A stretch of DNA of 64,000 bases, taken from a virus. The translations under genes and the position numbers were made by a program. Positions 21,518-41,998 of this stretch are shown here, in pieces. The DNA lies in IMG/VR virus record IMGVR_UViG_3300003323_000724, positions 39,940 through 103,939 of that record, one strand, 5' to 3'. The notes below the pieces were generated by a model. It saw only the letters and a program-made list of their open reading frames with translations, had not been told where the DNA came from and did not search any database. The number at the start of each line of letters is the position of its first letter. The stretch's first letter is position 1.

Positions 21518-22077
21518 GCGACGGGGACGCACTTTTGAAGGCGATACTTGCGAACCGGGACGATGACACACCGAGACTGGTGTACGCGGACTGGTTAACT
21601 GAGAACGGACAAGAGGCGAGAGCGGAATTCATTCGGGTGCAGGTGGAATTGATGCGTTGGTTGAAAGAGAACTCAGAAAGCCCCAATCGTGACCCAGACA
21701 TTTATGGAGCGAGGGAAGGAATTTCTCGCATGAAGCAATTGTGGAACCTTCGAGCTTACCCACCCGCACCTAAAGGATTCATTGCTTGTTTGGCCACAGA
21801 TTATTTTGGATACCTTCCTTCGCACCGAGTGGCAGTTTACCGAAGAGGGTTTCCCCATCAGATTTACTGCCCCACTGAAGATTGGTTGGAGTGTGCTGAC
21901 GTGGTGTTTGGTCAATATCCAATTCAAAAAGTAAATCTAACTACTCACATCCCACTGGGCAACCTATTCGATCTGTGCCGAAAGGCAGGATTGGGGGAAT
22001 ACCCCGGGAACCGGATTTCGTTCCATGAAGAGATCCTTGGCGGTATCTGGAAAGGGATCAAATTCACACTCCCTTGA
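21514..22077 (+). CDS. TIGR02996 domain protein
   Basis: MSDGDALLKAILANRDDDTPRLVYADWLTENGQEARAEFIRVQVE (near-consensus); YRRGFP; YPIQKV. Confidence 0.92.
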   Translation: MSDGDALLKAILANRDDDTPRLVYADWLTENGQEARAEFIRVQVELMRWLKENSESPNRDPDIYGAREGISRMKQLWNLRAYPPAPKGFIACLATDYFGYLPSHRVAVYRRGFPHQIYCPTEDWLECADVVFGQYPIQKVNLTTHIPLGNLFDLCRKAGLGEYPGNRISFHEEILGGIWKGIKFTLP

Positions 22078-22159
22078 GAATAGCCCTAATTTCGCTCAAG
22101 ATCAATTTTGGCCACTCGGACGTGACGTATCCCTGTTGACGTGTCGATCGATCAACCTG

Positions 22160-22198
22160 GAGCATCCTGTGCTAAATAAAAAGGGTCCGGATCGCCTA
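22160..22198 (-). terminator. intrinsic terminator-like hairpin (minus strand) in 200-nt intergenic region
   Basis: minus strand ggggttcggattaccttggtaggcgatccggaccc followed by tttt; coordinates approximate. Confidence 0.35.
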
Positions 22199-22283
22199 CC
22201 AAGGTAATCCGAACCCCTACTGCAATGAAGGCCCAACAACGAGTTGGGTGAGCTGCAACGGAATGGTAACAGAGAGGTGAAGG

Positions 22284-22820
22284 ATGGGAAAGTTAACTCG
22301 GTTCCAAGACGTGGACCGGTTCACGCGAGACGGGAGTTGGGAATGTGACTACACCCCGGACCGTCTAATTAAGCAAATCGATGATTGGGTGGGAGAAGAG
22401 AAACTAAATATGGACCCGGACTTCCAACGGGGACACGTTTGGACCGCGAAACAACAAACGGCCTACATCGAGTTCTACCTTCGCGGCGGGAAAACCGCTC
22501 GGGTGATCTACTTCAACAACCCAACCTGGAACCGAGACTGTGACGACTATCGAGATTTCGTAATCGTTGATGGTCTCCAACGGGTGACCGCGTTTCGGAC
22601 GTTCATCGAGAATCGAATCAAGGTGTTCGGGAGCTATTACCGAGAGTACACGGACAGTTTCCGAATGGGACTGAACACGGTGCGGCTGAACGTGAACGAT
22701 CTGAAGACCCGGGCCGAGGTGCTTCAGTGGTACTTGGATTTCAACACCGGTGGCGTGGTCCACACGGACGCGGAGATCCAACGGGTTCGGAAACTGCTCG
22801 AAGCGGAGAAGGTCAAATGA
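22284..22820 (+). CDS. stand-alone DUF262 (ParB/Srx-like, GmrS-type) domain protein
   Basis: PDFQRGHVWT..QQ.AYIE, IVDGLQRVTA, FNTGG. Confidence 0.85.
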   Translation: MGKLTRFQDVDRFTRDGSWECDYTPDRLIKQIDDWVGEEKLNMDPDFQRGHVWTAKQQTAYIEFYLRGGKTARVIYFNNPTWNRDCDDYRDFVIVDGLQRVTAFRTFIENRIKVFGSYYREYTDSFRMGLNTVRLNVNDLKTRAEVLQWYLDFNTGGVVHTDAEIQRVRKLLEAEKVK

Positions 22821-23208: not shown

Positions 23209-23531
23209 CGGAGCAAGAAATGCGGCAACTGGACGCGGAGATCCACACCAAGGTGTTCGGGAAGTTGGCAGGACATACCTATCATTGGACGGACGATTTG
23301 GTTTTCGAGCCACCGGAGGATCTTCCTAGGTACTCAACGAATTTGGTCGATGCGTGGAAGGTTGTGGACAAACTGACGGATAACTACGGGTTTTGTTTGG
23401 ACTCTGGAATCCAACCGGACAAGTGGCAGGCGACCTTTACTCACTTTCCGCACATGTTGGACGAGACAGGAAACACGCCGGCGGAAGCGATCTGCCGGGC
23501 CGCACTGCTAGTTGTCGGGAATCGGGTTTGA
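23205..23531 (+). CDS. phage ABA-sandwich-like domain protein
   Basis: LDAEIHTKVFG, PRYSTNLVDAWKVVDKL, TPAEAICRAAL. Confidence 0.75.
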   Translation: MTEQEMRQLDAEIHTKVFGKLAGHTYHWTDDLVFEPPEDLPRYSTNLVDAWKVVDKLTDNYGFCLDSGIQPDKWQATFTHFPHMLDETGNTPAEAICRAALLVVGNRV

Positions 23532-23554
23532 TTGGGTGATTCCGTACCGATTCT

Positions 23555-23584
23555 TTGCATTCCCGAATCCGTGAGGCATAGTTG
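23555..23584 (+). promoter_or_regulatory. phage repeated promoter, copy 5 (probably leaderless)
   Basis: TTGCAT-16 nt(...ccgtgagg)-CATAGT-tgagc-ATG(23588). Confidence 0.65.
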
Positions 23585-23587
23585 AGC

Positions 23588-23806
23588 ATGGAAACACTAG
23601 CTAACCGACTAGCTCTATGGACCGGCCTGTTTACATTTGCGTGTCTTGGGGTAATGGCTTGTGGGATGGAGTTGTTGGGTCGGCACTGGGAAGCTGGAAT
23701 GATGCTGGGAGCGAATGCAGTTTGTGTGATTCTGATGATGTGGTTTACAGTGGAACACCGACTCCAAAAGGGTTGGTGGCCGTGGCAGGATAAACCAGAG
23801 GATTGA
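23588..23806 (+). CDS. small two-TM membrane protein
   Basis: two hydrophobic helices. Confidence 0.5.
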   Translation: METLANRLALWTGLFTFACLGVMACGMELLGRHWEAGMMLGANAVCVILMMWFTVEHRLQKGWWPWQDKPED

Positions 23807-30429: not shown

Positions 30430-30747
30430 ATGGCGGAATCAGACAAGAGGGACTATTCAGATTTTCTGGAATACTGCCATCGAGTCAGTGAAATCGTAAA
30501 AACTTGGCCGGCATGGAAACAAGAAGTATTAGGTGGAAAAGCAGTGCAACAAGCAACCCAAGAACAACCCAAGGTGATCGACGCAACGAAGCGAATCATC
30601 ATTTTCTACTACCCGGCCGAGGATGAAGGAGCCAAAGGACGAGCGGAAAAGAACGCTGCTCGAATCCAAGGTGCCGGAACTCTCGTGGTTTCCCGACCGA
30701 CAACATACACTGGTCCGATGGTTGAAGCGATTGACCCACCAAAGTGA
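30430..30747 (+). CDS. hypothetical protein
   Basis: operon position; SEIVKTWPAWKQ. Confidence 0.55.
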   Translation: MAESDKRDYSDFLEYCHRVSEIVKTWPAWKQEVLGGKAVQQATQEQPKVIDATKRIIIFYYPAEDEGAKGRAEKNAARIQGAGTLVVSRPTTYTGPMVEAIDPPK

Positions 30748-32772: not shown

Positions 32773-35763
32773 ATGCCAGCGTTTGAAATTCCAAATACGT
32801 TCTCCGATTTCAAAATCGGTAACGCTCCCGCCGGATTCGACCCTTCCAAGTTCCGGCTCCCAACTGGCGAGCCGATGCTGAACGATGATTCGCTCATCAT
32901 CCCGGCTAGTCGCGGGTTCACTTCCGTTTGGAATCAGGGTCAGAAGGTATACACCTATCGCTTCGATGAAGCTATGAGGGATTCGTACATCAATGCTCGT
33001 GCAATGCGACGGGACGGGTTCTTACGTGGACTATTTGAAGAACGTATTCTTCCAACGATCAATAGAGAATGGGTAATCGAGATTGACGATGACCGCGACC
33101 CACAGCAGCGGACCGTTCGGGACGCCCTCAAGAAGATCGTTCGGGAAATTCCCCAATTCACCCTTCTGAAACGCGCCCTACTCGACGGGGTGTGGTTCGG
33201 TCGCGCCGGTGTCGCCGGGTTCTTCAACCGGAACCCGGACGTGGAAAACCTGTGGTGCTACAGCTACTCCCCGTCCTGCAAGGATCACAAGTGGGATTCG
33301 GTCCACGGGGACAGCATTCAGTACACGTTCGACGGCATTCCGGCGATCATGATGGATTCCATCACGGCCGGATGGTACGCGGCTAACGGAGCTGTCTGGC
33401 AGGGGGAATGGCAGTCCAAGTTTGGTAACAGCACGACCGGATTCGGTGAGTACGGAGTTACTTCCGGTGGTGGTGATTTGCGGTACACGGACCGGGGCGG
33501 CACGGCTCTGGTTCTCCATCGCAAATACTGGCGGGACCGGTACGCGATTCACCAGCACATGCGCGAGAAGGCGGATTACCTCGAAGGGGAACTAGCGGGT
33601 AGCGTCCAGGGCTTGGGGCTTCGCGGCCTCGTCTACTGGCTCTACGTGCTCCGCACACAAGCCCTTGCGTGGATGCTCGCTTACATGCAGTCCGTCGGCA
33701 TGATGGACATGGTGATTTTCTACTACCCGACGGGGGATCACGCGGCCCGTGTTCGTGCGGAACAGAACGCCAACCGGATGATTGGCAAAGCAGCTTTCGT
33801 TGTGCCCCGGCCGGTAAATTACAACGGGCCAATGGTCGAACAGCTCCAGATGAACAGTGCGGGCTTCAAAGCCATGCACGAGTTCCTGAGTGATTACTTC
33901 GACCGACACATTGAACGCCTCTTTGTGGGCCAGTCCATGAGTTCCGGTGCCGACCACGGCACCGGACTTGGCGGCACCGGGCGCGCTCTTTTTGCAAAGG
34001 CCACTAAAGACGAGATTATTCAGTACGATACAACAAACCTTGATGAGACTATAACCCGCGACATTCTTACTCCGTTGAAGCAGTACAACTTTGCGTGGGC
34101 CAACTTTCCGGTTCGGTTCAAATCGATGCTTCCTGATCCGGACGCGCAAGAGAAGGTACAGAGCGGCAAGGTTCTGGTTTCTCTGGGGATTCCCGTCAAG
34201 TCCGTGGAAATGCTCCAAGCGGCCAAGTTTACGACTCCGGAAGACGGAGATGAGGTCATCATTGCTGCCGGTCCGGGGGGTCCGCCAATCCTTACGACGA
34301 TGGGGCCAAACGGCCCGCTCCCGCCGCAGCAGTCGCCAATGATGGCCTCCATGATGCCCCCAATCGGTCCGGGCGGTGGTCCAATGCTGCCCCCGGGTCC
34401 GATGGGACCGCCCGGAATTCCCCCCGGTTCGGCACCTCCACGGCCGCTATTGACTCAGCCACCGATCCAGAACGGCCCCCAAATCGCACCAGTTCGTCCA
34501 TATGTGGTTCCGCAGCACCAGATGGTGACTTTGCCAGCCGGATCACATTCGGCGATTGTTCGCCATCCTGTGCGATTTGCGGAGGGGGCATCGGGGGCAC
34601 CGCCGTCCGCTGGCCCCGTGATGGGAAGTCCGGCGGGAAGCAACACGTACATTCCGAGTGCGGGGACCAAACCATCCTACGAACGGCGACACACCCCCAA
34701 GGGTGGCATCACGTACCGGGACAAGCCTTACCGTTCGGGTCAATTCATGCCCGGTACGGTAATGTTTCAGCACACCCCGCCGCGACCGAAAGTGACGGCC
34801 GACTTTGGTTCCCGGACGCCCCCGAAACCACCGGTGGAGTACACGGAAGATCAACCCCAAGAACAACTCCCGTGGACCGGGCACCCGGACGCCGAAGCGG
34901 TGATGAGTTCACTGCCGAAAGCGGCCCACGAGCGGCTCAAAACGCGGCTCCTGAAGTTCACTCCGGTTCCGGACGTGGAAACGTCAACCAAGATGTGGTA
35001 CGACGGTGACCCAAACGCACCGCATCCGAGCAAACGAACCCCCGCGATTGCGTTCTACGATCCGGCTAACGGGGAATTGGTTGCGGCTCCGGGCGGTCCA
35101 AACGTAGACGCAAGAGGGGCAATTGCCCACGAGATGTTCCACGCTCTCGATCAGGACGAGAACCGGCAGTATTTCGATCTGTCCGGTGATCCGGAGTGGT
35201 TGGATGCGTGGCAGAAGGAAATTGCGGGCGGGCAGCTATCTAAGTACGCCACAACCGATGAAATTGAGGCGTTTTCCGAGATGGGACGGGCGTTGCATGG
35301 GGGTCAGCACGACCGGGGGGATATCGAAAAGCGATTCCCCCAATCGGTGGCGTTCCTACGCAAGCACGGGTTGGTGGATGAACCGAAACAACCAACCCAA
35401 GCCTCTCGGTACGCCGAAGAATACGACACTTCACATTTGCTGTTACCTTCTGCTGGCGGTTGGGTGGGCAAGGAAAAGTCTCGTGATTTGGGGGACGGAA
35501 TTATTCATTTTGTTGATCCATTCGGCAGCCACCGTTTTGTAGCTCATTCCGAAGGAGTTCCCGTGTCGGCAATTCAAGTGATGGGTACGGGAAAATCGGG
35601 AAGGGTTGTGGGAGCCTATACCCATCCGCAATACAGGCGGATGGGCCACGCTTCTAATTTAATCCACACCGCTCGTGGAATTTTTCCAGACTTGAGCTTT
35701 GACGATGATAGGTCGAGCGCGGGGGATGGGTTGGTGCAATCTTTAACGAGACAACCGAATTAA
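32773..35763 (+). CDS. Mu gp29/DUF935-like portal protein with C-terminal Pro-rich linker, zincin (HExxH) and GNAT domains
   Basis: LLDGVWFG, GLGLRG..YW, IERLFVGQSMSS, ITRDIL.PL..YNF in first ~500 aa; HEMFHALD...YATTDEIEAFSE; AYTHPQYRRMGHAS. Confidence 0.8.
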   Translation: MPAFEIPNTFSDFKIGNAPAGFDPSKFRLPTGEPMLNDDSLIIPASRGFTSVWNQGQKVYTYRFDEAMRDSYINARAMRRDGFLRGLFEERILPTINREWVIEIDDDRDPQQRTVRDALKKIVREIPQFTLLKRALLDGVWFGRAGVAGFFNRNPDVENLWCYSYSPSCKDHKWDSVHGDSIQYTFDGIPAIMMDSITAGWYAANGAVWQGEWQSKFGNSTTGFGEYGVTSGGGDLRYTDRGGTALVLHRKYWRDRYAIHQHMREKADYLEGELAGSVQGLGLRGLVYWLYVLRTQALAWMLAYMQSVGMMDMVIFYYPTGDHAARVRAEQNANRMIGKAAFVVPRPVNYNGPMVEQLQMNSAGFKAMHEFLSDYFDRHIERLFVGQSMSSGADHGTGLGGTGRALFAKATKDEIIQYDTTNLDETITRDILTPLKQYNFAWANFPVRFKSMLPDPDAQEKVQSGKVLVSLGIPVKSVEMLQAAKFTTPEDGDEVIIAAGPGGPPILTTMGPNGPLPPQQSPMMASMMPPIGPGGGPMLPPGPMGPPGIPPGSAPPRPLLTQPPIQNGPQIAPVRPYVVPQHQMVTLPAGSHSAIVRHPVRFAEGASGAPPSAGPVMGSPAGSNTYIPSAGTKPSYERRHTPKGGITYRDKPYRSGQFMPGTVMFQHTPPRPKVTADFGSRTPPKPPVEYTEDQPQEQLPWTGHPDAEAVMSSLPKAAHERLKTRLLKFTPVPDVETSTKMWYDGDPNAPHPSKRTPAIAFYDPANGELVAAPGGPNVDARGAIAHEMFHALDQDENRQYFDLSGDPEWLDAWQKEIAGGQLSKYATTDEIEAFSEMGRALHGGQHDRGDIEKRFPQSVAFLRKHGLVDEPKQPTQASRYAEEYDTSHLLLPSAGGWVGKEKSRDLGDGIIHFVDPFGSHRFVAHSEGVPVSAIQVMGTGKSGRVVGAYTHPQYRRMGHASNLIHTARGIFPDLSFDDDRSSAGDGLVQSLTRQPN

Positions 35764-35942
35764 GAAAATAACCAGAGGACTCTCCCCATCAACGTCTCCC
35801 GCTTTTCAGCGGTAATCGACTCAGGAGAGATTCCTGCGGGTCTGGTACTCCGTCCCATCCGAGAAGGGATTTGGTGGCGGAAGCGACCCCGCACATCACC
35901 CGGTTTACTCCGGGATTGTAGGCACTAGCTAAGTGCCGTGGC

Positions 35943-36242
35943 TCAACGATACTCAGATCCGAATGACATTTTCATCAGGTTGATATCGGCTTGGTTCAGT
36001 GCATCGCAGAATAAACCAAGCCCGGTTTTATCCAGATACTCCGTGATGGATGCACACAAGGAACGCAATCGTTCCCTATCATGGGGTTTGGATTTTAGAC
36101 ATTCGGTCCGTTTCAGAAAATTCATCTCATGTATTAATCTGCGAGCTTCCGATACTCTTTCTTTGGGCGTAGCTGCTGATCGCAAAGACGCGAACGTGTC
36201 GGACAGGGAGGAAATTAAATTTCGATAATCAGCAACTCGCAT
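35943..36242 (-). CDS. hypothetical protein
   Basis: GGAG RBS downstream of promoter copy 6. Confidence 0.55.
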   Translation of the reverse strand: MRVADYRNLISSLSDTFASLRSAATPKERVSEARRLIHEMNFLKRTECLKSKPHDRERLRSLCASITEYLDKTGLGLFCDALNQADINLMKMSFGSEYR

Positions 36243-36274
36243 CTCAGTCTCCGGTTCGTGTTGTTTGGGACACT

Positions 36275-36304
36275 CAACTATGCAACACGAACCGGAAGAG
36301 TCAA
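36275..36304 (-). promoter_or_regulatory. phage repeated promoter, copy 6, overlapped by a 14-bp inverted repeat (36250-36263 / 36283-36296)
   Basis: TTGACT-16 nt(...cgtgttg)-CATAGT-tg; tccggttcgtgttg / caacacgaaccgga. Confidence 0.7.
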
Positions 36305-36322
36305 ATAAACCGTGGGATATAT

Positions 36323-36703
36323 TTAAATCTCTTCATTCTGTTGGGGAACCACCAAGAATCCACGCTGTTCTAGTTCCACAAGGGCATCGAGGTGCTTGCA
36401 TCGCCCCCCAGCCTCGTAGCCTTTACAACAGCACGCATGGTGCATGTCCGGATCGGTTACCAAGCACACATAGTGCTCCTCTCCGGTAGGTCGTTTTCGG
36501 AGCCGGAAGTGCCGCTCCGGCCCCTTGTGGTCGTACAGCTCCCGCACGTAATACTGAGACTTGTACTTCTGGCTAGTTTCCGTCCGCTGGCCGCAAATTT
36601 CCAGTGCCCCGCGAAGTCCGTCCGGCTGATCGATCTGGACCCAAGTGGCCGTGCGGATCGGATGCACACGGGTTGGGGAAAGAGGGACTGTGTTGAGCTT
36701 CAT
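36323..36703 (-). CDS. SWIM zinc-finger protein
   Basis: CCCKGY....RCKHL. Confidence 0.75.
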   Translation of the reverse strand: MKLNTVPLSPTRVHPIRTATWVQIDQPDGLRGALEICGQRTETSQKYKSQYYVRELYDHKGPERHFRLRKRPTGEEHYVCLVTDPDMHHACCCKGYEAGGRCKHLDALVELEQRGFLVVPQQNEEI

Positions 36704-36909
36704 TCTTGTTCCTCTCGTGGTGGCGGGGTGAAAGCGAAGTGGATTCCGTTGCACCCCAGAATCTCCACCAACTTCAGAGCCGAGTACGTTTCCAGCTTTC
36801 CCAAAATTGACTCGGACGATCCGCCTGCACGTTCAATTGCACCTGCAAGACTTGCAAGACATTTAGCAATTCGGGCCGCAATGTCTTCTTGGTTGTAGTT
36901 TTTGGTCAC
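36700..36909 (-). CDS. hypothetical protein
   Basis: coupled operon. Confidence 0.45.
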   Translation of the reverse strand: MTKNYNQEDIAARIAKCLASLAGAIERAGGSSESILGKLETYSALKLVEILGCNGIHFAFTPPPREEQE

Positions 36910-37223
36910 TTTCCCTTCCCTCCCTTTTTGGCTGTCGGCGATTCCCATTCGTACTCGTAAGTTCCGTACTCTGCTGCGTAGATGCCCAGATCGGTCAGTT
37001 TGTAAACCGTTCGGTGTTCGACCGGCTGTGATCGTAGATCACCCTTGTCGACCGAAACCACTTCGATTAGCCCGTCTTGGACCAGTTTCGAGAACCACGT
37101 CCCGTCCTTGGTCTTTCTGCCCCAATACATTTGCCGCAACTCGGCACCAGTACATTCTTTGTCCCTGACGAGCATCCTTAGCACCCGCCACGTCGCACTG
37201 TCGAGATCCTTGATACGCTTCAC
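36906..37223 (-). CDS. winged-helix DNA-binding-like protein
   Basis: KLVQDGLIEVV...VYKLTDLG. Confidence 0.55.
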   Translation of the reverse strand: MKRIKDLDSATWRVLRMLVRDKECTGAELRQMYWGRKTKDGTWFSKLVQDGLIEVVSVDKGDLRSQPVEHRTVYKLTDLGIYAAEYGTYEYEWESPTAKKGGKGK

Positions 37224-37468
37224 TTCGATTCCTCTTCAGACTGGATGGAAAATGAGTAATTGGGAACACGTTCGCGAAGTAACTTCATGAATTCGTTTTT
37301 GGCCTTTTCGATGTCCCACTCCGAACCGCATGGGGCGCATTGGATGTCGAATTGAATCGTGCCTGATGCCCTTCCGTTTTCAACTTTGTCCACGATCAGA
37401 ACGGAACTGGTCACCTTGGCTAGTGGGATTCCAAAGGACCGATAGACCTGTCGTTTGAGCCAGTTCAT
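37220..37468 (-). CDS. hypothetical protein
   Basis: GGAGGAG RBS after promoter copy 7. Confidence 0.55.
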   Translation of the reverse strand: MNWLKRQVYRSFGIPLAKVTSSVLIVDKVENGRASGTIQFDIQCAPCGSEWDIEKAKNEFMKLLRERVPNYSFSIQSEEESK

Positions 37469-37492
37469 GTTCTCCTCCAGTTCGGGAACACG

Positions 37493-37522
37493 CAACTATG
37501 CACCACGTCGGACCGAATGCAA
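37493..37522 (-). promoter_or_regulatory. phage repeated promoter, copy 7
   Basis: TTGCAT-16 nt(...cgtggtg)-CATAGT-tg. Confidence 0.7.
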
Positions 37523-37696
37523 GGAAACCGATAGATTTTGTTCCGGATTGGCTGTTTTCGGAGTCCTTTGCCCACGAATTGGAGAAAGTCAAAAAATTTT
37601 GTCGGATTTGCCCTAAATTTGTGTTTACTTGTTGCCACGGCATCCTATACGCTAATTCAAACGGGCAGCGATCGACTAGCTATCTTTCGCCACAAA

Positions 37697-37773
37697 CCAA
37701 TGCCACTGAGAGAGACGGGAGCGAATCCCGATCCGGTGTGGTTGGTTTCACACTTCTCCTTCAGTGGCATTGG
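37697..37773 (+). promoter_or_regulatory. structured 5' leader (three-way junction) of protease/scaffold gene
   Basis: 13-bp perfect stem 37697-37709 / 37761-37773 enclosing two hairpins. Confidence 0.5.
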
Positions 37774-37795
37774 CTCCCACCTCAAGGCCACTGAG

Positions 37796-39613
37796 TTGTC
37801 TACCCACTACTTAGCACCCACTCCCGAAACACCTCCCGCCGCTATTACGCCGGATCAGGTGCCCACGGGTGTCGATGCCACGGCGTCATTCGGGCAAAAG
37901 ATAAACGATTCGAGCAAATGGAAAGTAGTTAGTGGGGTTCCTGTATTCAAGGCGCACCAGCGAACTGACCCCAACACACAAAAGCTGATTTCGGTTGACC
38001 TTCCCAAGCTCTATCGAATTGCCGAGAACATGCAGCGGATGGAGCGACAGGGCGGCGTGCCGATTCGGATGACTTTAGGACACACCGAGCCGGGGAAGCC
38101 CGAGACACAGCAGCCCCCGATTGCTGGGTACTACCGAAACGCACGGGTGCAGAAGTTCGGACCCGGCGGCGAACCGGCAATCGTTGTAGATGAGTTTCTC
38201 GACCCCCAGTTCTCGAACGTGCGGAAGAACTACCCGTACCGCAGTTCGGAATACTACGACGACACGGAACAGATTACCGGTGTCGCACTCCTAACCCGCG
38301 ACCCGTTCCTCGATCTTGGCGTAGTCGCCTATCAGAAGGGCGACCAAAGCAACCTGACTTACGAGAACCGGCAGACCACTTCCTTTGTGGCCCACGCGAC
38401 GGAAATCCCCGGTTCCGGCCAAACGAATCCTTCTACCGGGCGCACCCCGGTAATGTACCGCCTCAACCTCGGAGAAGTTCCTATGTACCCGCAGGGTGCG
38501 CCCCAGCCGAACCAATTCGTTCCGCCCCCGCAACAGGTTCCGGTTGCCCCGCAACCGACTCCTTACGCTGCTCCCGTTCAACAGTCCGACCCGCAGCCTG
38601 TGTGGGGCCAAACCGTTCCCGCTCCGACGCCCTACGCTTACCCGCGTCCGGTTTCGTACTGGGACGGCACCCAAGCCTCTGGTGGCAACCCGCCCCGGCC
38701 GGTTCCGCACCAACACCAGAACACGGGTGCGATCTACAGCCAGAACGGTCGCGGTGGGATCGGCCGCTACGCGGACGAACCGCCGATGGGTGGCCCTCCG
38801 AACGCTGGTCCTCCTGGAAGCGAACCGGGGAACAGTGGCCCGACCGCTTCACCGCTGGATCAAGTACGGGAACTGCTGATGCAAGCCGCTCAAGTCCTTG
38901 CGGACTGTGAAGGTGGCGGCATGGGTGGCCCCGGCGGTCCTCCGATGATGGCTTCTCGTACCGGCGGCAATGCTCGCTACGGCCGTACTCCGAGCCGCCC
39001 GCGTCTCTCCCCGGGAGCACGGTACGAAACTCCCCGGACCCCGACGCAGTACACCGGTGCGACAACCATTTCTGGGATGCCCGTGGGTGTCCAGATGGAA
39101 ATGGACAAGCTGAAGCTCGAAAACACCCAGCTCAAGCAGGGGATGAACGTCCTGTTCTACGAACGGGACCAAGCGGACACCCACGCTTGCATCGAGACCG
39201 TTCGCAGCCTTCAGTACCAAGGCTTCCAGGTCGGCGAGTACGAGGTTTCGGAACTCAAGAAGAAGACCCCGGAAGAACGGGCCGCTTACGTTCAGCACAT
39301 CGCGACCCACTACCAACAGATCGGCACCACGCCGCTTCCGCAGCAGTTGGGTGATCCGACCCCGGCTGGGGCGGAACCGGTTCCACCGATGACCAAGGAA
39401 CACATGCAAGCGGCCCTGCGTGCGACTCAGGGAAACAACGACTCGAACGCATTTATTGCGGCCATGACGCACTATCAGCGGAACGGTGTCCCGGCCGGTA
39501 GCCGATTTACCCCTCCGACGGTGCAACCGAGCTATGCGTTCGACCAGAACCCGTTCGAGGGGCAAGCGGTTCCCAACGCCGCTCCCGGGACGAACCCGTA
39601 CTCGATGGATTGA
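37796..39613 (+). CDS. Mu gpI-like prohead protease fused to scaffolding domain
   Basis: VP...LGH...P.AG, YPYRSSEY, ITGVALLTRDPFL; Pro/Gln-rich then coiled-coil C-terminus; start uncertain (TTG 37796 or ATG 37700). Confidence 0.75.
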   Translation: MSTHYLAPTPETPPAAITPDQVPTGVDATASFGQKINDSSKWKVVSGVPVFKAHQRTDPNTQKLISVDLPKLYRIAENMQRMERQGGVPIRMTLGHTEPGKPETQQPPIAGYYRNARVQKFGPGGEPAIVVDEFLDPQFSNVRKNYPYRSSEYYDDTEQITGVALLTRDPFLDLGVVAYQKGDQSNLTYENRQTTSFVAHATEIPGSGQTNPSTGRTPVMYRLNLGEVPMYPQGAPQPNQFVPPPQQVPVAPQPTPYAAPVQQSDPQPVWGQTVPAPTPYAYPRPVSYWDGTQASGGNPPRPVPHQHQNTGAIYSQNGRGGIGRYADEPPMGGPPNAGPPGSEPGNSGPTASPLDQVRELLMQAAQVLADCEGGGMGGPGGPPMMASRTGGNARYGRTPSRPRLSPGARYETPRTPTQYTGATTISGMPVGVQMEMDKLKLENTQLKQGMNVLFYERDQADTHACIETVRSLQYQGFQVGEYEVSELKKKTPEERAAYVQHIATHYQQIGTTPLPQQLGDPTPAGAEPVPPMTKEHMQAALRATQGNNDSNAFIAAMTHYQRNGVPAGSRFTPPTVQPSYAFDQNPFEGQAVPNAAPGTNPYSMD

Positions 39614-40543: not shown

Positions 40544-41998
40544 ATGTTACCGACCAACCCGGCGAACGGGGCAGCACAAACCCAAACCGCTCCGACGGTT
40601 CAGCAAATGGGGTTTAACCCCATGCAGTTCACGCCGAATCCTACCCTCGGGGACAAGACTCGGAACCGTGATTGGGCCAAGCGGGAAGCGCAACTCAATT
40701 ACGAGATGGCGCAAGCCCCGCTCCCGCACCAGTACACCACGGCATCGGCCCACCCGATGTTCGGTGGTGGGTCCGGCAGTCCGCTAACCCAGTGGCTTCC
40801 GCAAGGGCAGCCCACGGGCTTCGCGGCGAACAAGGCTCCGGTGCTCTACAGCAACCCGGGTACGGCCCCGATGGTCCGCCCGACGTATGCGTACAACAAC
40901 CGGCTCGTGGGTATCAACCCGAGACAGCCGACGATGTACGTGGGAACGTGGCCGAACCAGCAGTACCCGGCTGGCTCTAACACGTACATTCCGAACTGGG
41001 AAGCCACCGGGATCATCATCAAATTCACCCGGGACGCCTCCAAGTTTCGGATCAACAAGTACCTCAAGTTCCTGACCGTACCGAAGGATCAGGGGTACTA
41101 TCTGACCCTCGACGCGGACAACCCGTACCGGATCATCAACCCCGCTGACTGGGCGTGGGAAGACGGCGCGGACGCTCCCGGCGGTCGTGGCAATAAGCAA
41201 GGGTTCGGGTTCCAGCCGTACAAGACGAGCCGGATGTGCTTCCCGTTCACCCTCGGGCAGAAGTCCGTTACGCAGGCCGAATGGCCGATCGTTGCGGAAC
41301 ACGCGATGATGGCCGCGTGCCAAGCGATGACGCTGCGAACGATCGTGAGCACGGCTCTGTTGACCAACACGGCTAACTGGACCGGTTCGTTCGGTACGAA
41401 CACGTCCGCTCAGTCCGCTCAGTGGACGAACGCGGCGTCCAACACGTCGAACGCGATCCAGACGGACATCAACACGGCGATGATCGCGATCGAACAGGCT
41501 TCGGGCGGTATCGTTACCGACGAGGAAGCCCTGAACATCACCCTGAACCCGGTAACGGCTCGGGGTATCGCGAAGTCCTACGAGTACAAGCAGTACATCC
41601 AAGGGTCTCCGGACGCCCTGGCTGCGATCACGGACCAACGGAACCCGAACCGCAAGTACGGTCTCGCCCCGTACCTCTACGGTCTGGCTCTGGTGGTGGA
41701 AAACGCCATCCAGGTGACCACACCGAAGTCGGACAACGTGGCTTCTCCGCTGGCACAGAGCCGTAGCTACATTTGGGCTAACCAGTACGTGAACATCACC
41801 AGCAAGCCCACCGGGTTGGTTGGTGAGGATCAGCAAACCTTGGACTTCAGCACAGTGGCAATGCGAAGTCTAGAAAACTTAACGACAGAAACTAAGGCAG
41901 ACCCCGATAACCGCCGCGAAACCGGCCGCGTCGTAGATGAATTCTGTACGTGTGTTCAGGCACCTCAGACGGGGTACTTGATTACTGGTGTCACGTAA
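40544..41998 (+). CDS. major capsid protein with ~140-aa N-terminal propeptide
   Basis: size, position, strong codon bias; HK97-like elements (ITLNP.TA, LAPYLYGLALVVE). Confidence 0.8.
   Translation: MLPTNPANGAAQTQTAPTVQQMGFNPMQFTPNPTLGDKTRNRDWAKREAQLNYEMAQAPLPHQYTTASAHPMFGGGSGSPLTQWLPQGQPTGFAANKAPVLYSNPGTAPMVRPTYAYNNRLVGINPRQPTMYVGTWPNQQYPAGSNTYIPNWEATGIIIKFTRDASKFRINKYLKFLTVPKDQGYYLTLDADNPYRIINPADWAWEDGADAPGGRGNKQGFGFQPYKTSRMCFPFTLGQKSVTQAEWPIVAEHAMMAACQAMTLRTIVSTALLTNTANWTGSFGTNTSAQSAQWTNAASNTSNAIQTDINTAMIAIEQASGGIVTDEEALNITLNPVTARGIAKSYEYKQYIQGSPDALAAITDQRNPNRKYGLAPYLYGLALVVENAIQVTTPKSDNVASPLAQSRSYIWANQYVNITSKPTGLVGEDQQTLDFSTVAMRSLENLTTETKADPDNRRETGRVVDEFCTCVQAPQTGYLITGVT

Follow-up and report, generated by a model that had tools for sequence, protein, structure and literature searches.

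The portal gene of a phage of ~104 kb, assigned to planctomycete hosts, encodes a Mu-type portal domain followed by a long C-terminal tail, in which a zincin metallopeptidase domain and a GNAT acetyltransferase domain are preceded by a short motif that recurs in the major capsid protein of the same phage. The gene lies at positions 32773–35763 of the stretch analysed here (the window), which is the final 64 kb of the 103,939-base IMG/VR virus record IMGVR_UViG_3300003323_000724. Judged by the comparisons set out below, its product is a portal-anchored polyvalent protein with two unrelated effector-type domains, in a family whose domains are shuffled among homologues. The motif shared with the capsid protein (residues 620–628, here called motif C) is the best candidate for a processing or recognition site in the tail. 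It had not been singled out by an earlier reading of the window made from its letters alone (the sequence-only reading), which had described the portal, the peptidase, the acetyltransferase and a series of Tyr/Phe motifs separating the domains of the tail. The features of the gene and of the head-module genes downstream are given below by nucleotide position in the window, with residue numbers for the 996-amino-acid (aa) product.

32773–35763, + strand: portal and cargo-tail gene, one uninterrupted open reading frame (ORF)
32773–34263, + strand: Mu-type portal domain, residues 1–497 (PF06074, Portal_Mu / DUF935; phrog_113)
34264–34566, + strand: Pro/Gly/Met-rich linker, residues 498–598 (translation)
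34567, + strand: PVRF-AE, starting at residue 599 (translation)
34567–34656, + strand: putative capsid-junction copy, made up of PVRF (599–602), a spacer and motif C, M617–P628 (25-portal alignment)
34669, + strand: KPSY-E, starting at residue 633 (translation)
34669–34755, + strand: KPSY and unit B (HTPKGG...GQFMPG), a short conserved module before the cargo (seen in 11 proteins)
34690–34755, + strand: HTPKGG...GQFMPG itself, residues 640–661 (translation)
34831, + strand: PVEY-TE, starting at residue 687 (translation)
34870–35388, + strand: zincin metallopeptidase of the lethal-factor / Pro-Pro-endopeptidase type, residues 700–872 (profile against the PDB)
35128–35142, + strand: HEMFH, residues 786–790 (translation)
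35395, + strand: TQASRYA, starting at residue 875 (translation)
35404–35760, + strand: compact GNAT domain, residues 878–996 (profile against the PDB, AlphaFold model, Foldseek)
37856–39613, + strand: candidate protease-scaffold, the conserved part of ORF 37538–39613 (conservation in five phages)
40544–41998, + strand: major capsid protein with a 143-aa N-terminal extension (ESM Atlas structural matches)
40928–40939, + strand: PTMY of the capsid protein
40967–40993, + strand: PAGSNTYIP of the capsid protein

Portal domain and interchangeable tails

The assignment of the N-terminal half is secure at the level of family profiles. Pfam Portal_Mu matches the ORF with 119.8 bits (cut-off 23.9; E 2e-34), phrog_113, annotated as 'portal protein', matches residues 1–497 at E 8e-20, and no other ORF of the record gives a full portal match. 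A profile of the portal family found no match among solved structures. Residues ~22–498 are 50–63% identical to those of ~65 related portals, many of which lie on contigs of 101–119 kb. The wider family was drawn from a portal-domain search, which returned 81 relatives of 567–1733 aa, and from an exhaustive search that added one more of 1875 aa. A collection of annotated phages gave three remote portal matches, none of them with a tail, and a scan of genome contigs for relatives found none.

C-terminal tails are a general property of this group, ranging from 82 to 1388 aa across ~80 related portals and from 118 to 1388 aa in the ~65 close relatives. Every complete close relative has a tail, the short close matches being confined to contigs of less than 2.3 kb and hence cut off, and true tail-less portals (483–495 aa) occur only in a clade of 38–41% identity. 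Directly after the portal domain, all close relatives have low-complexity linkers equivalent to residues 498–598. The Pfam domains found in the tails include 2H phosphoesterase, which is the commonest, ATLF, ParB_N, ART-PolyVal, ADP-ribosylating exotoxin, cytidylyltransferase, PI3/4-kinase and zeta toxin. The comparison of homologous portal C-termini that the sequence-only reading had proposed finds tails that recur and cargo that differs at the same position. The cargo is, by this comparison, swapped freely between phages of the clade while the linker and the junction motif stay fixed.

The portal domain itself is interrupted in some relatives. An in-frame insertion of ~345 aa lies near residues ~404–411 in L013:2249–3282, L015:11080–12116 and L016:597–1630, and is present in proteins P0178, P0190, P0197, P0201 and P0205; portals P0153, P0194, P0198 and P0204 have insertions of 150–190 aa. 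These may be inteins or inserted domains.

Peptidase and acetyltransferase domains

All of the tail elements listed by the sequence-only reading are found where it had placed them when the ORF and its motifs are checked in translation, and the per-segment profile comparison that it had suggested supports both enzyme domains against the PDB. An exhaustive HMMER search with residues 690–996 returned 659 relatives, in which the peptidase part (~700–870) and the C-terminal part (~878–992) are found apart from each other in proteins of all lengths, among them stand-alone relatives of 100–190 aa. A word-indexed homology search with the same residues among proteins of similar length recovered the query itself and nothing else. 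Homologues of the two domains were aligned separately.

On its own, the peptidase region gives weak matches, to lethal factor in the PDB (E 0.008) and to Pfam ATLF (E 0.066), and its 13.3 bits against ATLF (PF07737) fall under the gathering score of 27.4, with relatives at ~21 bits. The homology rests on a profile of 18 homologues, which matches the catalytic domain of anthrax lethal factor at E 1.4e-14 and the Clostridioides Pro-Pro endopeptidase (PPEP-1/Zmp1) at E 9e-7. The HExxH motif predicted as lethal-factor-like from the letters alone sits at exactly the position given in the feature list. The full M34/ATLF signature is present, comprising HExxH, a downstream Glu as third zinc ligand and the catalytic Tyr. 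Residues H786, E787, H790, D793, Y825, E832 and E836 are invariant in the 18 homologues, and H786, E787, H790, Y825 and E832 align with their lethal factor equivalents, H686, E687, H690, Y728 and E735. Given the profile matches to the PDB and the invariant catalytic residues, the tail domain is, to judge from its sequence, an intact M34-type zincin. The same profile also matches chain P4 of the PBCV-1 capsid structure (6ncl) at E 8.5e-5, which hints that a minor capsid protein of this giant algal virus has a related zincin-like core.

The GNAT domain shows the same pattern of a faint single-sequence signal and a clear profile. Against the Pfam GNAT families the query reaches E 0.001–0.006, with 19.6 bits (cut-off 27) and 17.2 bits (cut-off 20.7), both below threshold. 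A profile of 22 homologues matches solved GNATs at E 4e-6, the AlphaFold model of the domain has a predicted local distance difference test score (pLDDT) of 89.4, and its top Foldseek matches are all GNATs with probability 1.0, so that the acetyltransferase named by the sequence-only reading is confirmed as the C-terminal domain. GNAT motif A (R/Q-x-x-G-x-G/A) occurs as RRMGHA at residues 955–960, with R955 and G958 invariant. Three relatives (P0026, P0024 and P0086) exceed the Pfam GNAT cut-off, and GNAT relatives reside in large proteins with ART-PolyVal, NUDIX and LPD38 domains. Relatives of both enzyme domains thus occur in polyvalent proteins; the sequence-only reading had named MuF-linked ones. 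Within the 82 portal-family proteins the zincin is found in 22, and the GNAT domain is attached to the portal in this phage alone.

Between linker and enzymes lies a module composed of KPSY and unit B, whose pattern Y-x3-H-x-P-x-GG...GQF-x-P is found in 11 proteins; in the stand-alone protein P0152 (276 aa), the zincin comes after unit B. In front of other cargo modules stands a related unit, Y-x-x-D-x-x-G-H-E-H-K-G-x-G-x-GGGQF. The identification of unit B with Pfam DUF5661 was considered and rejected, as it is not a match. Cargo-preceding units are seen in P0003, P0005, P0156, P0170, P0187, P0212 and others, and a second form reads Y-x3-H-A-P-x-GG...GGQF-I-P. The stand-alone zincin proteins P0006, P0029 and P0152 begin with such units, and tails of a distant clade of portals have D-x-x-H-P-R-D-x-x-G-[KR]-F in place of the other two types. 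These units may serve in targeting, docking or cleavage.

The proposal that Tyr/Phe motifs mark the domain boundaries holds in part. Conserved aromatic counterparts exist in homologues: the zincin module opens with a conserved D-[YWF]-[TS], of which PVEY is the equivalent here, and internal zincins are followed within ~10 residues by an aromatic residue. However, Tyr or Phe near Pro in the tail is not enriched relative to shuffles, and Tyr next to Pro shows no significant enrichment over shuffles in the tail of this protein. The near repeat of TQASRYA as TQASMYA in a 1687-aa protein of the window is likewise real at the level of the letters (nt 35395 and 14032, with an identical core of 12 nt) but lies near chance. 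By a rough estimate, ~0.5 heptamers matching at 6 of 7 positions are expected between proteins of these sizes, and the best BLASTP match between the tail and the 1687-aa protein has E 0.036; a link between the two proteins through TQASxYA is therefore not above chance.

Motif C and the capsid protein

Motif C reads PAGSNTYIP here, with the core consensus P-G-G-x-N-T-Y-[IL]-P, and belongs to an extended tail consensus downstream of the linker, G-P-x-M-G-[YF]-P-G-G-x-N-T-Y-[IL]-P. By the strict pattern it occurs exactly once in each of 49 portals; counting the variants NTH, NTM and GTY as well brings the number to ~61 of the 65 close portals, and the ~150 non-portal proteins compared are all free of it. 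In an alignment of 25 portals, N624 is invariant and M617, P620, G622, T625 and P628 are at least 90% conserved, a level of conservation equal to that of portal core residues.

In the six reading frames of the window, PAGSNTYIP has two copies, one in the portal tail and the other at residues 142–150 of ORF 40544–41998, the major capsid protein. Matches of the ESM Atlas capsid model to Phage_cap_E / Phage_capsid_4 clusters (291–352 aa) span residues 135/157–484 only, and most structural matches begin at residues 142–147, which places the motif at the junction between the 143-aa extension and the folded capsid domain.

Portal and capsid proteins were compared in six close and four distant phages. 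The motif is present in both proteins in six of the six related phages with both genes, and in all six its capsid copy marks where the folded part begins and stands directly before E-A-T-G-x-x-x-K-[FY]-T-R. Rare variants tend to be matched within genomes, as with PAGSNTYIP here, GSNTYVP in L003, GGNNTF in L011 and YYPGG in L015; pairing the motifs by genome gives the highest summed identity of all 720 permutations, a value that 3 of the 720 reach. Both proteins also have, 2–22 residues upstream of the motif, an aromatic residue within P-[TV]-x-[YF] (PVRF in the portal, PTMY in the capsid protein). Since this aromatic precedes the motif in both, PVRF-AE, counted among the boundary motifs by the sequence-only reading, is part of a unit shared by portal and capsid protein.

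The distant clade provides a natural control. Its four phages (genomes of ~47 kb) have capsid proteins of 356–373 aa that lack the N-terminal extension and long, cargo-bearing portal tails that lack the motif. Among the phages compared, a portal copy is thus found only with a capsid protein that has an extension-to-fold junction, which favours a role in maturation cleavage. One of these distant portal tails (L021:9842–11926) contains three to four tandem K-P-L-G-G-[LV]-L-G repeats followed by a long Val/Pro-rich repeat run (A-P-x-V-x-V). In another relative, the 119 kb record of L005 (G002) has two further regions, 21859–22284 and 23386–23634, that weakly match the C-terminal half of the capsid protein (35–43% identity), 2–3 kb downstream of its gene.

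The capsid-fold gene lies 4.8 kb downstream of the portal gene, and the order portal, candidate protease-scaffold, capsid is kept in nine related loci. The first ~160 conserved aa of the candidate protease-scaffold are 55–65% identical in five phages and share an invariant His and Ser; the sequence after them is of low complexity. Language-model features in the ESM Atlas place ORF 37538–39613 near Mu-like_Pro clusters (score 0.94); the label of a Mu-like prohead protease is a lead only. No match to MuF / SPP1 gp7 (PF04233) was found at E ≤ 1 in the 103,939-base record (CheckV ~77% complete), which agrees with the earlier remark that no MuF gene is visible.

Mechanism, rival readings and known systems

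The explanation that we favour is, taken as a whole, somewhat likelier to be right than wrong. The portal of a Mu-like head module would be extended by a flexible linker, the capsid-junction copy, the zincin and the GNAT domain, and up to 12 copies of the cargo would be incorporated into the head together with the portal ring. A portal is a dodecamer with its C-terminal crown towards the inside of the capsid, and in all solved portals known to us the C-terminus points into the capsid, so up to 12 tails would lie inside the head. The estimate of about 12 copies per head made in the sequence-only reading follows, as an upper value, from this stoichiometry; the location of the tail inside the capsid is argued by analogy with general portal architecture. 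We consider it likely that the protein is portal-anchored, encapsidated cargo.

The junction motif would then be read by the same head-assembly partner that reads the capsid protein, most probably the candidate protease-scaffold encoded between the portal and capsid genes. It is plausible that the motif is a shared handle for the head-assembly and maturation machinery and that the cargo is released by proteolysis. A cut near PVRF/NTY would yield a portal of ~600–630 residues and ~390 aa of free cargo within the head; for cleavage at or near the junction motif, our judgement is finely balanced and tips slightly towards doubt. The freed cargo would leave with the DNA and act early in infection, with the peptidase acting on host proteins and the acetyltransferase on a protein or small-molecule amine. 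Such injection with an early anti-host role is a step more tentative than the cleavage. Still more speculative is the view that, in a clade of ~100-kb planctomycete phages, the capsid-junction copy is an address label, behind which any enzyme cassette would be loaded at portal stoichiometry and released by the capsid-trimming step, carried out by a protease of no recognised family; this would amount to a natural plug-in system for loading and delivering cargo.

Several findings weigh against this account. The permutation test covers only six related phages, and the two clades, which differ in both capsid extension and portal motif, represent roughly one evolutionary event. Profile searches of ORF 37538–39613 in Pfam, PHROGs and the PDB gave no protease match, and its AlphaFold model (built on a 5-sequence alignment) has a pLDDT of 44 and no fold match. 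Six close portals with almost no cargo keep the motif, which must therefore do more than release cargo. Lastly, one distant capsid protein begins M-A-T-G-P-G-F-P-Q-G-N-N-T-Y-V-P, so that the motif is there the tip of the mature N-arm, not part of what is removed.

The last two findings also support a different role of the shared motif, as a docking element that copies the tip of the capsid N-arm, binds the scaffold or capsid and seeds or anchors the portal vertex, with the enzymes remaining tethered and acting inside the head or in the producing cell. The cargo-poor portals keep the linker as well as the motif, the motif is the natural capsid N-terminus in a distant phage and so belongs to the mature protein, and its conservation matches that of the portal core. 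Docking to scaffold or shell is a serious rival, or an added role, because of those cargo-poor portals. Against it, the portal motif is confined to the clade whose capsid protein has an extension and hence a junction, the distant capsids have an N-arm but no extension and yet no motif has been copied into their portals, and portal-tethered enzymes could not reach the host. As a replacement for cleavage and release, we regard docking as unlikely.

Less likely again is that the zincin of the tail is itself the processing enzyme, with the aromatic motifs as its cutting sites in the tail, and perhaps in further head proteins, and is not an anti-host effector. Solved zincin relatives cleave in Pro-rich or extended linkers. 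The zincin is the very last domain in 20 of the 21 other zincin-bearing portals, no classical prohead protease was detected in the record (Mu-like_Pro PF10123 and Peptidase_S78 PF04586 gave no match at E ≤ 10 across its whole length), and autoprocessing by zincins in polyvalent proteins has been predicted by Iyer et al. 2017 (PMC5512222). However, ~60 of the 82 portal-family tails have cargo and the motif without a zincin, and the zincin therefore cannot be the general reader of the motif. Finally, although the window comes from a single metagenome-derived contig and the only sequencing run found contained 5% of the sampled words, it is very unlikely that the long ORF is an assembly or annotation artefact, whether a sequencing error that merged two genes or a gene in decay, because the fusion recurs in ~80 portals, dozens of independent assemblies share the architecture with intact frames, and the catalytic residues of both enzymes are intact.

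Loading and cleavage as favoured here have close precedents. Polyvalent proteins were defined by Iyer et al. 2017 (J Bacteriol, PMC5512222), whose passages compared here name the zincin as their commonest domain, describe PBECR, 2H and inorganic pyrophosphatase domains fused to portal domains, associate one of two polyvalent-protein GNAT families with ART domains, and predict packaging, injection and zincin-mediated processing. The present protein is like these in joining several unrelated enzyme domains to a head-structural domain in a portal-terminase phage, and unlike those in the passages compared in its zincin and GNAT on a Mu-type portal, its linker conserved throughout the clade and its capsid-derived motif. 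The proposal of the sequence-only reading, that the portal itself loads about a dozen cleavable enzymes for early injection, is thus the hypothesis published in those passages applied to a new case. A real and recurrent fusion, real enzyme domains and the lack of a MuF match bear out part of it, and its TQASxYA link to the 1687-aa protein does not hold. Since portal-fused effectors were already published (PMC5512222), the finding as first stated is a new example and not a new principle; new within the literature compared, including those passages, are the fixed architecture with a hypervariable tail across a clade, a Mu-type portal bearing both zincin and GNAT, and a tail that repeats the capsid junction.

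MuF-borne polymorphic toxins of temperate phages, encoded next to portal genes (Jamet et al. 2017, BMC Biol, PMC5576092), similarly join a conserved head protein (SPP1 gp7 / Mu gpF) to a C-terminal toxin or enzyme domain that varies. Here, in contrast, the carrier is the portal itself, and the record has no MuF match. The predicted dose also differs, with up to 12 per head against the one or two copies of gp7 that SPP1 heads reportedly contain. In SPN3US, a single motif marks where the prohead protease cleaves capsid protein, portal and ejection proteins alike (PMC10052503). SPN3US and phiKZ thus resemble the present case in a short motif common to capsid and portal, and there also to packaged proteins; in them AXE serves as the motif, what the portal sheds is an N-terminal propeptide and mass spectrometry has shown the cleavage (PMC10052503), whereas here the motif is P-G-G-x-N-T-Y-x-P, it lies in the C-terminal tail of the portal and cleavage is inferred. 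Lethal factor and PPEP-1/Zmp1 (MEROPS M34; PF07737) share with the tail zincin an alignable HExxH helix, downstream Tyr and Glu zinc ligand. Only the catalytic core of ~110–170 aa is common with lethal factor, whose other domains are absent here.

The loading of enzymes into phage heads for delivery with DNA has been studied experimentally in few model phages. The clade described here amounts to a natural experiment, in which ~80 portals have interchangeable cargo behind a conserved carrier, linker and motif, the last of these being shared with the capsid protein. Together these features lead to testable predictions on cleavage and recognition. Were the predictions borne out, they would define a maturation signal in an unstudied phage group, imply a protease of no recognised family and point to a way of packaging chosen proteins into phage heads.

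The sequence flanking the portal gene shows some further features. Some 2 kb upstream of the gene, a 105-aa ORF (30430–30747, + strand) matches portal residues 313–358 over 46 aa (52% identity; BLASTP E 1e-14). This stretch is a stray copy of part of the portal core, and the N-terminal part of the ORF matches phrog_29728, a family of unknown function. Downstream, the 1.8 kb between the portal and candidate protease-scaffold genes (35764–37537) contain no long ORF on the + strand. The short ORFs on both strands of this interval have no significant Pfam match and no relatives in related loci, ORF 36906–37223 giving two marginal Pfam matches at E 0.03 and 0.15. The interval is lower in G+C (0.51) with reversed skews, and the corresponding spacing between the two genes varies from ~1 to 6 kb across relatives.

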